From a virus, in IMG/VR virus record IMGVR_UViG_3300045772_000033, positions 13,873-77,872 of that record: DNA of 64,000 nucleotides; one strand, 5' to 3'. A program made the translations under genes and the position numbers. The first letter of the stretch is position 1. Each line of letters starts with the position of its first letter. The notes below the pieces were generated by a model. That model was not told the DNA's origin, did no database searches, and saw only the letters and a list, made by a program, of their open reading frames with translations. This document shows, piece after piece, positions 20,255 to 29,905 of this stretch.

Positions 20255-22767
20255 GCGGACAAAAGCCACAGATCGACTATGACGCACTGGCAGACCAAGC
20301 CAGAAAACAAGCTACGTCCGCAGTTCCCGTCCCCAAAAATGCGGCGCAGCCCACTGCCGTCGATTACGATGCGCTGGCGGCGCAGGCGAGACAAGCGCAA
20401 GTCCCTGCGCCACCTGCTCCTACTGTTGCGGCGCCAGCGCCTCAAGAAGGCTTCTGGGCTTCCGCTGTCTCCCCTTTCGTGGGAATGGCTCAGGGTCTCA
20501 AATCGGCTGTCTACGAGGGTCCGCAGAATCCTACTGAGGCTGCAATCGTAGGCGGACAACCGGGAGTGAGCTTGTGGGACGATGCGACCCCTATCATTGG
20601 TCGGGCGGTCTTGGCAGCAAAGAGGATGCTGGTCGATCCACAGATTGATCAAGGGAAACAGGCGGCGAGTGCATTCAAGCAGGCGGCGCCGCTGTCTCTG
20701 CATCCAACTCCAGGGCAATTGGAGCAGCGACAGCTCGCGCTTGGGCACGGTCTCGCTGCTGCAATTCCTATGCTGGGGCCGTGGGCCGCAAATGTGGGCG
20801 AAAAGGAAGGCGAACAGCTCGCGGCTGGAAACTACCTGGGTGCTACCGGCACAGCGTTTGGCAACGCTGCGCTCGCGCTTGCACCCAAAGGAATATCCAA
20901 AATGGCGGGAGCTGCTCCTGAAGCCGCACAAGGCCTTGTTCGCGTCGCCACCGGCACTGGTACAGGCCCAGTCAAAGAACTCGTCAAACAGCGCCGGATC
21001 GCCAACGCAGGCATCGACGAGGCCAATGCCGCGGCTGACAAAGCTCACGCCGGTAACACGCAAGACGCACTGCATGAGCAACGGGGCCGCGAGATCGAAT
21101 ATCAGATAGCTGTTGACAGCAAGACTCAGGAAATTGCTCAAGCAGATCAGTCCGAGGCTGGGCAACTTGCTGCCAAGCAGTCCGCTGCCGAGCGGAAGGT
21201 CACCGCGGCCAATGAAGCCATCAGGGCTAAGCACCAGGCTGTTGCACAGAAGGTGGCCGACGCCAACCGTGCCGCCGAAAACGCACTTGAACTTCGACGT
21301 CAGCTTGAGCAGACTTATCAGAAGGCTACCGCAGACCACTACGCCAAAGAGCAGGCTACCGACACGCAAGCCAAGGCTGAAGAGAATACCGCCTGGCAGG
21401 GTTGGAGACAGAAGACCGCGGGAAAGACTCTCGATGGTGGGCTGATCGCCGAGCCACTTCAGAAACTGCGCCTTGACTCACCTGAAGTGGACCGGACGCT
21501 AAATCAACTTGAACCCCGCGGCGATGAAGTTCCGCAGGAATCGCCTTACACACAGATACGCGCGCAAGCAGCACAAAAGCAATTCGGCAAAGACTACGAA
21601 TCTCTCATCCCGGTCAAGCAAGACGAAATTGATGACTTGCTTCATTCCAGCGGATATTCTCCGGAGCCGATTGCGTTTGACCCCCAAGCTGGGCAGCCGA
21701 TTTCCATCGATCGAGTGCAGCGTGCGTCTTCTATCCTTCAGCGATATATACGCAGCGGCCGATTTGAGGGGCCGCTGCTCGGAGAAATGAAGCAAGTGGC
21801 GAAGGTGTTGCGTAATGCCGTGACGCGGGCCTCTGCCGATGCTGGAGCTACTCCTGAGCTCGATGCCGCGCGCAACTCTACCGTTACCTATCAGAATGCC
21901 TTCGGCCGGGAACGTAATATGCCCGCCACTGCGCGCACCATTCGTGAAAAACAACTCAATCCGGAGGCCTTTCAAGAGCGCGCGGACGAAGAGCGCTTAG
22001 CCAAGGCGCGTCGTTACGACCCCACCCTGGTCGATTCTTACCGCCAGGTCAAGGCCGCGCGCAAGGCGCTGGATAGCCTTTCTCCTGAAGATCAGATTCG
22101 CAAGAGATTGCGCCAAGTGCCCCCGCCTCCGACCGTGAATGATCCCCGACCTGGGTTCCGGCTGACCGCTCCGCCGCAGCGCACTCCCGCCCGGCCGGCA
22201 TCTGGTTCCCCTGCCGAACGCGCGTTTCAATCGGTGGATCAGCCTTCACGTCCCAATTTCCCTGATCGGCCTATTCCTGATCCTCATCAGACCATCTCTG
22301 CCGGCGACATTGCTGCCGCCAAGAGAGCGGCCGTTGAAGCCAGCGCAGGAAAGTGGTGGACTCGCGGACGCTGGGCAGCAGCCGCCCCGATCATTTGGGC
22401 CATGCGTGGATTCTTCGGCGGGCACATCCCTTCTATCCCCATGGCTGGTGCTGAATCCGGGGGCATTCTGGCTGCCACTCACGTTGGGGTATCTCTTCTT
22501 CGCTACCCGCCGTTGGTTGATTTCCTGGTCAAGGCCCGACCCAAAGACGTTGCGGTTATTCCGTTGGAACTCCGTGGTGACTTACCTGGTCTGGTCTCTC
22601 AAGCTCAGCGACAGGGGATCAAGGTATCTCCGGCACTGCTCGCAGCGACAGGAGGGGCGCTGGCTGCCCAAAAGAAAGAAGGGCCTCAAGGCCTTCAATT
22701 ACCCATTCCAGTAGCGCAAGCCTTACAAGCTATGCAACCTACCTTCTCGCAAGGAGCAACTCAATGA
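20251..22767 (+). CDS. Large putative ejection protein
   Basis: 838 aa, Ala/Gln-rich coiled coil with duplicated DYDALA motif. Confidence 0.55.
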   Translation: MSGQKPQIDYDALADQARKQATSAVPVPKNAAQPTAVDYDALAAQARQAQVPAPPAPTVAAPAPQEGFWASAVSPFVGMAQGLKSAVYEGPQNPTEAAIVGGQPGVSLWDDATPIIGRAVLAAKRMLVDPQIDQGKQAASAFKQAAPLSLHPTPGQLEQRQLALGHGLAAAIPMLGPWAANVGEKEGEQLAAGNYLGATGTAFGNAALALAPKGISKMAGAAPEAAQGLVRVATGTGTGPVKELVKQRRIANAGIDEANAAADKAHAGNTQDALHEQRGREIEYQIAVDSKTQEIAQADQSEAGQLAAKQSAAERKVTAANEAIRAKHQAVAQKVADANRAAENALELRRQLEQTYQKATADHYAKEQATDTQAKAEENTAWQGWRQKTAGKTLDGGLIAEPLQKLRLDSPEVDRTLNQLEPRGDEVPQESPYTQIRAQAAQKQFGKDYESLIPVKQDEIDDLLHSSGYSPEPIAFDPQAGQPISIDRVQRASSILQRYIRSGRFEGPLLGEMKQVAKVLRNAVTRASADAGATPELDAARNSTVTYQNAFGRERNMPATARTIREKQLNPEAFQERADEERLAKARRYDPTLVDSYRQVKAARKALDSLSPEDQIRKRLRQVPPPPTVNDPRPGFRLTAPPQRTPARPASGSPAERAFQSVDQPSRPNFPDRPIPDPHQTISAGDIAAAKRAAVEASAGKWWTRGRWAAAAPIIWAMRGFFGGHIPSIPMAGAESGGILAATHVGVSLLRYPPLVDFLVKARPKDVAVIPLELRGDLPGLVSQAQRQGIKVSPALLAATGGALAAQKKEGPQGLQLPIPVAQALQAMQPTFSQGATQ

Positions 22768-27871: not shown

Positions 27872-29905
27872 ATGAGGAAGTTTCTGGTCACAATGGTTCT
27901 AATGCTGAGCGCAGTGCCGATGTTTGGGCAGTTGAGCTATGTGCCGCCGGCCAATGCAGCTTACTGCCTACACGCGGGGCACTGGATTCCTGTTGCCGCA
28001 CAGGTTGGTACTCCGCTGAGTTTCGTGCCGCCTGCTGTCGGAATATATGGCGAGAATGGGACTTCGTGGTATGCGATGGCGTGTGATGCGAGCGGCAATC
28101 TGCTTCCCGGCGGAGCGGCTGGTGGCGATCTGAGCGGCACGTATCCGAATCCGACAGTGGCCCAAGTCAACGGCGCAGCTATTCCGGTAAGCAAGACCGT
28201 CGTAGGCACAAACTCTAGTGGTCAAATTGTCGATGCTTCCAGTGCGACGCTGGCCAACAACACGACCGGCACGGCCACGAACGCCACGAACGTGGCGACC
28301 ACGGCGAAGTCGGACAATACCAACTATTATCTCGCGCTGCTTGGGTCCAATACCTCGACAAATCAGGGAGTGAACGTAGACTCCGCAGGTCTGGCATATT
28401 ACAACCCGTCCGCCAGCACTTTTACCGCGCCGTACACGACAGCCCCAGCAGCATCATCGGCTACGGACTCGGCGTCTCTGGGACCAGAACTGACCACAAG
28501 TGGCACTTGCACCGGAACCGGGTGGACGGGGACGTATCCCAACTACATTGCACCTGGTACAACAGCGGCGCTGACCTGCACAGGATTCACGAGCGGAAGC
28601 TATTACCAGACAGTCACCGGAATTACGAATAACGCAGGAGTCACTGCGGCGACCTACGTGAGCGGCATTTCAGCTACAGGATCAGGCACTTGTCTGCTGG
28701 CGTTTACAGGAGGCGGTGGGAGCGGAGCCACAGCCAGCATTGCAGTGACTTCTAACGTGCCGGGAGTAATTACCATAACCTCTCCGGGTACGGCGTTTAC
28801 CAGCGCCCCAACAGCGGCCACGGTGAGCAATGGAACGCTAACCTGCACTGGCCCAGCGGTCTTGACTTCGACCATCGGAGGCGGCACGGTCACGGTTGCC
28901 ATAGGAACCGCTCAGCCCGCAACGTCGGCTTCAACGGCTAGTTCCACACTAACCACCGGACCCAAAGCTAATGCCACATCGTTGACGTACACGCCTACGG
29001 CGGCTTTTGTGGGAACGATGAACATCAGCGCAAAGCTCATCTCGCCGATCACAACCTTTTCGTACACGGGAAAAGACTCGACTGGCGCGGTATCGACTAC
29101 CGTGCTGTATCAAGGCTTAGCTTCTTTGCATAACATTTTTGAGGGTGGGGGCGGAACATACAACACGACCGGCATCTACAACTCCGCGCAGGGGAGCCAG
29201 GCCCTCTACTCCAACACGACCGGCAGCTACAACTCCGCGCAGGGGTACAATGCCCTCTACTCCAACACGACCGGCATCTACAACTCCGCGCAGGGGAGCC
29301 AGGCCCTCTACTACAACACCACCGGCAGCGACAACTCCGCGCAGGGGTACACAGCCCTCTACTCTAATACCACCGGCTACTACAACTCCGCACAGGGGTA
29401 TCAAGCCCTCTTCTCCAACACGACCGGCAGCTACAACTCCGCGCAGGGGTTGAATGCCCTCTACTACAACACGACCGGCATCTACAACTCCGCGCAGGGG
29501 TTCAACGCTGGTCGCTACATCAATGATGGTTCAACAGCCAACCAAACTTCCTCAAACAGCGTATATTTGGGCGCTAGTACAGAGGCCAAAGCCAACGGCG
29601 ATACCAACGAGAACGTGATTGGCAATGGAGCAGTAGGCAATGGCAGCAACACAACTACACTTGGCAATAGCAGCGTGACAGCAACTTATCTGGCGGGGAT
29701 TACTCTTCCTCTCGTGATTTACAGCCACGCCGGAACGCAGTTGGCGGCTTGTGCAAGCGGGTTGCAAGGGGGAATGGCGGTTGTCAGTGATGCCACGGCA
29801 CTAGTTCCAGGTACTGCATATTCTGTGACAGCGGGGGCAGGAGCCGACACTGTGCGCGTGCAGTGCACGTTGGTAAGCGGAACCTACGCATGGCAGACGA
29901 TGTAG
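27872..29905 (+). CDS. Fibre/adhesin-like protein with NTTG repeats and N-terminal signal peptide
   Basis: AGGDLSGTYPNPTV motif; 17-aa repeats; GNGSNTTTLGN; starts MRKFLVTMVLMLSAVPMFG-Q. Confidence 0.7.
   Translation: MRKFLVTMVLMLSAVPMFGQLSYVPPANAAYCLHAGHWIPVAAQVGTPLSFVPPAVGIYGENGTSWYAMACDASGNLLPGGAAGGDLSGTYPNPTVAQVNGAAIPVSKTVVGTNSSGQIVDASSATLANNTTGTATNATNVATTAKSDNTNYYLALLGSNTSTNQGVNVDSAGLAYYNPSASTFTAPYTTAPAASSATDSASLGPELTTSGTCTGTGWTGTYPNYIAPGTTAALTCTGFTSGSYYQTVTGITNNAGVTAATYVSGISATGSGTCLLAFTGGGGSGATASIAVTSNVPGVITITSPGTAFTSAPTAATVSNGTLTCTGPAVLTSTIGGGTVTVAIGTAQPATSASTASSTLTTGPKANATSLTYTPTAAFVGTMNISAKLISPITTFSYTGKDSTGAVSTTVLYQGLASLHNIFEGGGGTYNTTGIYNSAQGSQALYSNTTGSYNSAQGYNALYSNTTGIYNSAQGSQALYYNTTGSDNSAQGYTALYSNTTGYYNSAQGYQALFSNTTGSYNSAQGLNALYYNTTGIYNSAQGFNAGRYINDGSTANQTSSNSVYLGASTEAKANGDTNENVIGNGAVGNGSNTTTLGNSSVTATYLAGITLPLVIYSHAGTQLAACASGLQGGMAVVSDATALVPGTAYSVTAGAGADTVRVQCTLVSGTYAWQTM
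29162..29518 (+). repeat. Seven 51-bp tandem repeats (NTTGxxNSAQGxxALYx)
   Basis: Unit AACACGACCGGC..ACAACTCCGCGCAGGGG recurs every 51 bp. Confidence 0.9.

Follow-up and report, generated by a model that had tools for sequence, protein, structure and literature searches.

This article deals with a 64,000-nucleotide stretch of viral DNA (hereafter "the window"), which makes up bases 13873-77872 of a single 77,872-bp virus contig (IMG/VR record IMGVR_UViG_3300045772_000033), and in particular with three large consecutive genes within it, F1, F2 and F3. Their products are best read as the receptor-binding proteins of a short-tailed phage of the T7/SU10-like type, with F1 as a beta-helix tailspike or depolymerase and F2 and F3 as fibres. 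All three begin with a leader that has the form of a cleavable signal peptide and is followed by a glutamine, and comparative evidence gives good support to the view that their folding takes place outside the cytoplasm. Tailed phages, in the textbook account, are assembled wholly within it. By what route, then, would such proteins reach the particle?

Leaders and cysteines of F1, F2, F3 and their relatives

Leaders were called by a rule-based scan, followed by inspection, of every open reading frame (ORF) of at least 60 aa on both strands of the 77,872-bp genome. The form sought, that of Sec/signal peptidase I substrates, was a positive n-region, an uncharged and hydrophobic h-region some 8-15 residues long, and a small residue at both -3 and -1. 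An earlier sequence-only reading had claimed that the three fibre/spike-like proteins carry cleavable leaders which the upstream virion genes lack; the ORFs and N-termini are exactly as it described, and the scan flagged no further large virion ORF anywhere in the genome. The F1 leader has K2, the hydrophobic core ALTIATILLFA and the end ASPA/Q (a slash marks the predicted cut); that of F2 has K2 and K3, the core LLALLVLLAA and the end AFA/Q; and that of F3 has R2 and K3, the core FLVTMVLMLSAV and the end MFG/Q. All three thus combine a basic n-region, a hydrophobic h-region and a small residue at -1. They are neither of the lipoprotein type, since Gln stands at +1 and there is no lipobox Cys, nor of the twin-arginine (Tat) type, since there is no RR in the n-region.

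A Shine-Dalgarno motif lies just 5' of each leader ATG (AAGGAG for F1, GGAGG for F2, AGGAG for F3), and a longer F2 frame is open from a GTG at 25127. Leaderless isoforms made from downstream starts, which the same reading had named as a possible refutation, were considered and rejected. F1 has no second in-frame ATG, GTG or TTG within its first 80 codons, so its conserved N-terminal domain (N-domain) cannot be made leaderless, and the alternative starts of F2 and F3 lack a Shine-Dalgarno motif and lie inside or after the leader. Contigs of a metatranscriptomic library match the window with zero mismatches at 22574-23023 and 24899-25401, spanning the F1 and F2 leaders and the ends of the genes upstream of them; they attest presence in an RNA library, which is not proof of transcription. 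Uncovered bins of that library and RNA runs with a small share were given no weight. Two DNA runs of other studies contain contigs whose flanks agree closely with the window but which diverge within the segment encoding the F1 leader (joint at 22786-22821). It therefore seems that the F1 gene has a different leader in other populations, which fits the free variation of leaders described below.

The cysteine counts of the reading (10 in F1, 18 in F2 and 8 in F3) were all recovered, every residue lying in the mature part, as were its close pairs: CPATTVC (C319/C325) and CDAGVGC (C748/C754) in F1, and CSTGSAWC (C47/C54) and CTTFGC (C351/C356) in F2. Glycosylation, a candidate prompted by an upstream glycosyltransferase module, was set aside: N-x-S/T sequons are not above composition expectation (observed/expected 8/11.8 in F1, 17/13.1 in F2 and 20/13.2 in F3).

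What do the relatives retain? In a collection of 5.8 billion proteins, about 40 F1 homologues share with it only the first ~140-180 residues, at 51-82% identity. A leader is present in 39/39 of the full-length ones. It ranges from 16 to 49 residues and is free to vary in sequence, while all 39 keep K/R in the n-region, a core of hydrophobic residues and, at -1, a small residue (nearly always Ala). Directly after it comes an almost invariant QIPSGYVQTTAT, with Gln at +1 in 38/39. A HMMER search of 1.84 billion representatives extended the family to 113 relatives of the F1 N-domain, which is N-terminal in every one. Among the 96 members with a profile-located N-domain that were tallied for leader and cysteines, 88 bear a leader, three are apparent 5'-truncated gene calls and five are truly leaderless. 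The latter begin M-(P)SGYT, that is, exactly at the predicted mature N-terminus.

The cysteines follow the leaders. The N-domains of the 88 leader-bearing members contain four cysteines in 52 cases, two in 21 and three in 11, whereas those of the five leaderless members contain none in four cases and one in the fifth (Fisher p = 4e-7 for the association). Among the loci located by an alignment-based scan, two have a leaderless, cysteine-free version of the domain, and one of these bears weak matches to the tail genes of the phage studied here; single-protein pattern scans for the leaderless relatives P0248 and P0226 had matched nothing. Within the family, no member has C61 without C90 or C90 without C61, while C102 and C138 persist in many members that lack the first pair. 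This behaviour points to Cys61-Cys90 and Cys102-Cys138 as the probable disulfides of the F1 N-domain.

Cysteine parity tells a similar story beyond the N-domain. The count in the mature protein is even in 67/76 leader-bearing members of at least 400 aa and odd in nine (p = 4e-12, for sequences that are related to one another, with differing distal modules), and it is even in 21/21 leader-bearing large ORFs of 16 related IMG/VR loci. The leaderless 902-aa protein family encoded in the same loci served as a control, and its full-length members have 8 even and 6 odd counts. Gln at +1 also stands behind the leaders of unrelated N-domains, namely those of F2, F3 and neighbours in loci L008, L009, L015 and L016, with mature starts such as QTRITG, QWTIGS, QVSNPQ, QSTPVA and QSPVAV. 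That unrelated domains should share a glutamine at this very place is understandable if the cut turns it into the N-terminal residue. The survey of relatives that the sequence-only reading had proposed thus bears out the pattern among the F1 homologues, in the related loci and across the wider family.

All this has to be weighed against the textbook route, in which the fibres would be assembled in the cytoplasm and the relevant pool would never be exported. The N-terminus could be retained as a plug, be removed by another protease, or be bypassed as folding and trimerisation outrun Sec, with the cysteines oxidising after release. Fibre N-termini do dock in the tail, export is deduced here from sequence comparison, and hydrophobic phage N-termini are sometimes mis-scored as signal peptides, a point made for capsid proteins (Matrishin et al., 2023, PMC10367356). 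A plug, however, would keep its sequence, whereas these leaders vary freely in sequence and length yet retain the form of a signal peptide and the small residue at -1. Conservation begins sharply at the predicted cleavage site, which is where the leaderless homologues start. That the N-domain cysteines track the leader would be unexpected if oxidation always came after release, and the Gln at +1 recurs behind the leaders of unrelated domains. We therefore regard a purely cytoplasmic route as improbable. Because their form is kept while their sequence is free, and because conservation starts so abruptly at the predicted cut, the leaders are better understood as cleaved signal peptides than as a structural plug, and export and cleavage of F1-F3 are very probable. 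The earlier proposal that these proteins fold outside the cytoplasm holds up well on leader form, Gln at +1, the link between leader and cysteines, paired cysteines and even counts; the disulfide bonds themselves have the standing of predictions.

Architecture and genomic setting

The AlphaFold model of F1, computed from its own alignment, comprises a leader helix (aa 2-15), a confident beta-sandwich (aa 23-140) and a less confident beta-helix (aa ~190-550). The beta-helix gives VIA-align Z scores of about 11 both to alginate and pectate lyases and to the tailspikes of CBA120, HK620, Acinetobacter and Klebsiella phages, and at the same position relatives carry Pfam families PF12708, PF13229 or PF05048. 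Among closer relatives the N-domain is 55-93% identical and always N-terminal, while the distal parts are swapped, with pectate-lyase, beta-helix, NosD, SGNH-hydrolase and other domains taking turns; several of these homologues sit on contigs of 71-80 kb. An Atlas structure search placed the N-domain near CarboxypepD_reg-like beta-sandwiches, weakly (TM ~0.5). F1-F3 matched no Pfam family at E <= 0.1, and so no T7 tail-fibre N-terminal family, and the N-domains of T7 and P22 were not matched in a search of PDB profiles either, which returned no relevant entry. In a scan of 185,579 species genomes with strict patterns no relative of the N-domain was confirmed, and the family thus looks phage-borne. 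Since F1, F2 and the 902-aa protein found no tblastn match among 50,697 phage records, the phage has no close cultured relative there.

F2 repeats this design in part. Its first ~100 residues are common to four proteins with differing middles (84-100% identity in P0047-P0049), and its last ~85 residues are found in one of them, P0047. F3 consists of a small N-terminal module with a Cys pair, a GGDLSGTYPNPTV (DUF5907-like) motif and SAQG..ALxxNTTG repeats. By tblastn the repeats have counterparts in 66 phage records, in genes for tail fibres, tail spikes or virion structural proteins, and the N-region matches many fibre proteins with a DUF5907-type motif.

A side observation concerns many proteins of ~1,000-1,170 aa (P0059, P0063-P0067, P0088, P0091 and others) that join a Gln-cut signal peptide (..GQ/VPNQINYQG..) to DUF5907. 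Some of them sit on megabase bacterial contigs, and DUF5907 relatives with other N-termini also bear an S74 chaperone domain, one being named "tail fiber domain-containing protein [Cyclobacteriaceae]". As judged from their sequences, the proteins combining DUF5907 with a signal peptide are cell-encoded, exported and tail-fibre-like.

The genome around F1-F3 has a CheckV completeness of 100% and a GC content of ~57%, and matching DNA occurs in permafrost, peat and freshwater metagenomes from 15 studies, including one metatranscriptomic library. On the + strand the virion genes follow a T7-like order: portal (a weak SU10_portal match), then small ORFs together with a scaffold-like protein, the major capsid protein, which is HK97-type (phrog_9953, E = 1.6e-25), the adaptor, the 902-aa protein, the internal-like proteins and finally F1-F3 (Table 1). 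The F1 start overlaps the stop of the 838-aa gene (ATGA), F2 follows F1 by 11 nt and F3 follows F2 by 48 nt; the overlap and the short gaps indicate that F1-F3 continue the virion operon.

Sixteen related loci keep the same succession: first a protein of ~900 aa, next small genes, then one protein of ~450 aa and one of ~600-870 aa. In the loci that extend further one to three large genes come next, each with a leader. Locus L012 has two consecutive proteins with the F1-type N-domain (9929-12916 and 12901-16008), each with its own, different leader. The ~450-aa and ~840-aa ejection-like homologues have no cysteine in any related locus, unlike the adjoining Cys-rich leader-bearing proteins.

Gene order, the conserved N-domain with swapped distal modules, the tailspike-like beta-helix of F1 and the F3 repeats shared with fibres of cultured phages are what supports the receptor-binding identity that had been proposed from the sequence. 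The gene position, the architecture and the lack of any leaderless fibre candidate in the virion module also make it likely that F1-F3 belong to the virion.

Could they instead be exported and stay out of the particle? As free periplasmic or released depolymerases, adhesins or receptor maskers, with an N-domain that targets an envelope component, they might strip capsule, exopolysaccharide or receptor from the infected cell and so assist release, block superinfection or keep progeny from sticking to debris. The sequence-only reading had named roles of this kind beside the joining of virions at or after lysis. The evidence for export serves this alternative equally, the beta-helix of F1 is of the depolymerase type, and CarboxypepD_reg-like sandwiches, to which the N-domain is weakly matched, sit at the N-termini of outer-membrane proteins. 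The mosaic adhesive trimer (MAT) fibres discussed below, together with many chromosomal proteins of ~1,100 aa in Bacteroidota, pair a signal peptide with tail-fibre modules outside virions, and receptor binding might be provided by the 902-aa protein. Such a role would nevertheless leave the phage without a recognisable fibre or spike at the T7-like fibre position. F1-F3 take up about 9% of the genome as three large genes with translational linkage to the virion operon. Virion-anchored binders classically pair a conserved N-domain with distal modules that are swapped, leaderless relatives of the domain exist, as they would for an ordinary virion anchor, and mass spectrometry of virions underlies the annotation of the counterparts in phi18:3, a cultured Cellulophaga phage. 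A non-virion role is on balance unlikely, and the receptor-binding reading is retained in what follows.

Table 1. Features of F1-F3 and of neighbouring virion genes, in window coordinates
Feature	Position	Strand	Remarks
F1	22764-25145	+	793 aa; N-terminus MKNFVHALTIATILLFATASPA/QIPSGF
F2	25157-27823	+	888 aa; N-terminus MKKLLALLVLLAAPAFA/QINIGN
F3	27872-29905	+	677 aa; N-terminus MRKFLVTMVLMLSAVPMFG/QLSYVP
F1 leader, 22 aa	22764..22829	+	predicted cleavage before Gln23
F1 N-terminal beta-sandwich domain, aa 23-147	22830..23204	+	conserved; pLDDT 76-92; presumed virion-docking module
F1 right-handed beta-helix region, aa ~190-550	23331..24413	+	tailspike/polysaccharide-depolymerase type; low-confidence model
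F1 C-terminal part, aa ~551-793, including C748/C754	24414..25145	+	conserved only in P0004 and P0005
F2 leader, 17 aa	25157..25207	+	predicted cleavage before Gln18; GGAGG upstream
F2 mature protein, 871 aa, 18 Cys	25208..27823	+	no Pfam match
F3 leader, 19 aa	27872..27928	+	predicted cleavage before Gln20; least canonical c-region
F3 mature fibre protein, 658 aa, 8 Cys	27929..29905	+	PHROG matches: tail spike, virion structural proteins
F3 SAQG..ALxxNTTG repeats, aa 438-610	29183-29701	+	tblastn matches
Adaptor-like protein, 427 aa	12176..13459	+	weak Pfam match to SU10_adaptor
902-aa protein, without leader	13456..16164	+	nozzle/tail-hub position; each of the 16 related loci has a homologue
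Four cysteine-free proteins, 179, 238, 452 and 838 aa	17586..22767	+	T7-type internal/ejection position

Among the neighbours, the adaptor-like protein is kept in 11 related loci (33-79% identity) and is by its context a candidate docking partner in the tail. The 902-aa protein, a putative nozzle by its position, has a conserved C-terminal part of ~500 aa and an N-terminal part of ~400 aa that differs between related phages and may form a further host-binding surface. In its AF2 model, confidence is confined to a pair of beta-sandwich domains (aa 90-205 and 265-405), and the conserved C-terminal half is poorly modelled. PDB profile and Pfam searches of 14 members returned no useful family or PDB match; a weak LecB-lectin match lies at aa 276-344. 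The 179-, 238-, 452- and 838-aa proteins would have an internal or ejection role to judge by their position.

Between the 902-aa protein and the 452-aa and 838-aa proteins lie five small proteins, one of them a GNAT-family acetyltransferase of 155 aa, whose gene (16628-17095, + strand) is thus within the virion module (Pfam Acetyltransf_1, E = 1.7e-8). Among the neighbours downstream of F3, Pfam and PHROG searches turned up neither lysis genes nor helpers of the Dsb, peptidase or cyclase kind, and a scan for terminators and promoters gave nothing informative. Two tandem paralogous genes at 33336-33890 and 33887-34543 (- strand) have near-identical N-termini (MKNLNAEDFESLLAS...) and identical upstream ribosome-binding regions, and one of them has a weak Imm5-like immunity-protein match. 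The remaining matches of the leader scan are short or overprinted ORFs, plus one ORF of 136 aa upstream of the window (genome 9372-9782, + strand), which is preceded by AGAAGGAG, begins MANMSRRLFSQLMATGIVSLAG/SASGFA in the manner of a Tat leader, and has no Pfam match.

A possible two-compartment route, its host and its consequences

The following sequence of events would reconcile exported fibres with a tailed particle. F1-F3 pre-proteins would be translated late from the virion operon and exported by Sec across the inner membrane of a diderm host, where signal peptidase I would cut them just before the Gln, which would probably cyclise to pyroglutamate. The mature proteins would fold, trimerise and form their disulfides in the periplasm. 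Heads and the tail core would meanwhile be built in the cytoplasm as usual, so that fibreless particles accumulate, and the mature trimers would dock on the tail through their conserved N-domains once the holin has breached the inner membrane, or in the lysate. Tailspike-less or fibreless particles can be completed in vitro by added protein, and late attachment is thus physically feasible. For the whole chain, from Sec export through periplasmic oxidation to the joining of particles at lysis, we put the case at evenly balanced. A broader proposal is slightly more tentative than that: two-compartment assembly would operate in this lineage and in several others of soil and marine phages, which would become infectious only at holin-triggered lysis, and the Gln rule would extend beyond Bacteroidota, probably to Acidobacteriota.

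Several points weigh against this scheme. We know of no mechanism by which tailed-phage particles acquire periplasmic parts, and attachment after the membrane breach must therefore be efficient. Export, cleavage, pyroglutamate, disulfides, presence in the virion and the timing of attachment are each deduced from sequence comparison. F3 has Met at -3, which is atypical for a c-region, whereas canonical cleavage sites before Gln are present in the F3 relatives P0052, P0100 and P0112. The behaviour of the cysteine pairs could also arise from oxidation after release into soil, which would explain the even counts, but not the leaders or their link to the cysteines. The 902-aa protein could itself be a leaderless receptor binder, so that F1-F3 need not be the sole binders. 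A distant branch of the phage group (portal 32-39%, capsid 50-77% and adaptor 33-38% identical, with the 902-aa gene also present) has a leader-bearing F1-type gene between capsid and adaptor (L020, L023, L026, L027, L029 and L030, around position 10001 in most of them), and this makes it uncertain whether the docking site is on the tail or on the head. Lastly, the phi18:3 proteins have 0, 1 and 3 cysteines and no detected homology to the F1 N-domain, which makes them a precedent for leaders only, and the virion preparations behind their annotation may carry contaminants.

A single route need not serve every copy. Most molecules might be exported, to act on the envelope or be released as soluble enzyme, and a minority might escape export and enter particles assembled in the cytoplasm; the proportions could also be the other way round. 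It is well known that phage depolymerases exist both free and bound to virions, and leaky targeting would be compatible with the sequence. F1, however, has no internal start from which a leaderless form could be made, Cys-rich, disulfide-dependent domains would fold poorly in the reducing cytoplasm, and a double destination is less economical than a single one. We consider it very unlikely, and prefer the single, exported route.

Which host would carry out these steps? Signal peptidase I substrates with Gln at +1, converted to pyroglutamate, have been described for Bacteroidetes as the "Q-rule" (Bochtler et al., 2018; PMC5837995, PMC10653852). Gln directly follows the predicted cleavage site in F1, F2, F3 and nearly all leader-bearing neighbours. 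Yet Shine-Dalgarno motifs precede 25/31 of the phage genes, while the same check on the genes of two Cellulophaga phages (GC ~32%) found none. Despite the Q-rule, Shine-Dalgarno use, 57% GC and the peat and permafrost habitat argue against a typical Bacteroidota host. The host would rather be a diderm, Shine-Dalgarno-using soil bacterium, possibly of the Acidobacteriota, to which the Atlas gave weak leads. The lineage with Gln at +1 after nearly every leader (the window and loci L001-L031) has Shine-Dalgarno sites, 51-64% GC and a peat origin, which suggests that Bacteroidota may not be the only host phylum in which the pyroglutamate Q-rule applies. As a further host clue, genome contigs were scanned for an IS-type 564-aa ORF, with no match, and we found no paper linking glutaminyl cyclase with Acidobacteria. 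Regarding sorting by the type IX secretion system (T9SS), F1-F3 contain no Pfam domain of any kind, although a divergent C-terminal domain could escape a Pfam scan.

If the two-compartment route is real, the assembly model changes for many environmental phages. To be infective, the phage would need Sec, signal peptidase I and Dsb of its host and perhaps its glutaminyl cyclase, all of them new host factors and new points of defence or counter-defence, and lysis would be an assembly step beyond mere release. Disulfide-stabilised, N-terminally capped fibres could be an adaptation to harsh, protease-rich soils. Possible benefits include keeping receptor-binding and depolymerase domains from premature contact with cytoplasmic precursors, and degrading the infected cell's own polysaccharide or receptor from within. 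There would be practical consequences too: annotation pipelines that take a signal peptide as evidence for a non-virion or lysogenic-conversion gene would mislabel genes of the F1-F3 type, and biotechnological expression of such fibres or depolymerases would need periplasmic or oxidising conditions. The leaderless, Cys-free and the leader-bearing, Cys-rich homologues offer a clean evolutionary pair for testing the export reading.

Comparison with known systems

The closest structural parallels are the fibres and tailspikes of podoviruses (T7 gp17, P22 gp9, CBA120, K1-5, Klebsiella phages). Like F1-F3, they stand at the end of a T7-like virion gene order, and like F1 they consist of a conserved N-domain (~125 aa in F1) followed by exchangeable receptor-binding or enzymatic modules. 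They have no signal peptide and are assembled in the cytoplasm, whereas F1-F3 have leaders, Gln at +1 and paired cysteines.

Leaders of the same kind do occur in cultured phages. In phi18:3 (KC821620), a podovirus of 71 kb, the consecutive genes gp085-gp087 begin MKNKITIIMILMSISFGYS/Q, MKKTIYILSILLLTISGVSA/Q and MKHTFSIVLFFILSIGLNA/Q, and all three products are annotated "structural protein" from experimental MS/MS (tandem mass spectrometry) proteomics. Cellulophaga phage Ingeline_1 (MT732435) has four consecutive Gln-cut leader-bearing genes, gp31-gp34, one of them annotated as pectate lyase, and its gp31 shares fibre repeats with F3. Unlike the phage studied here, both have Bacteroidota hosts, no Shine-Dalgarno use and a GC content of ~32%. 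Signal peptides on lyase-containing phage proteins were mentioned in passing by Bartlau et al. (2021, PMC8776804), and Porphyromonas gingivalis phage genes with signal peptides predicted to be cut before Gln were described by Matrishin et al. (2023, PMC10367356). The Porphyromonas proteins are of unknown function and were read as envelope modifiers, with no tail parts named, whereas here the leaders belong to the fibre/spike set; their host, moreover, is a member of the Bacteroidota, which the present host probably is not. The sequence-only reading had spoken of an undescribed system. In one respect this was too strong, since cultured flavobacterial phages have leader-bearing proteins of this kind, those of phi18:3 being annotated as structural from mass spectrometry, but what remains of it is the route: no paper was found that proposes how a tailed phage would use exported fibres.

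Exported receptor binders are otherwise familiar from the filamentous Ff phages, whose g3p has a Sec signal peptide and periplasmic disulfides. Ff virions are assembled at the envelope and extruded through it, whereas the portal, HK97-type capsid protein and tail of the present phage are put together in the cytoplasm. That trimers of the tail-fibre type can be exported from the cytoplasm and fold beyond it is shown by the MAT fibres of Bdellovibrio bacteriovorus (Caulton et al., 2024, PMC10769870). With a signal peptide, a beta-rich domain that is conserved and spans ~130 aa, and a variable fibre and tip, they resemble F1 in layout, and the likeness is one of layout: MAT fibres are products of bacterial genes that the cell presents on its surface, while F1-F3 are encoded by a phage. 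Beside these systems, what is new here is the set of leaderless homologues that start at the mature end, the loss of C61 and C90 only as a pair, the use of a neighbouring family in these loci as control for parity, the lack of any alternative start in F1, and the argument for a host outside the Bacteroidota.

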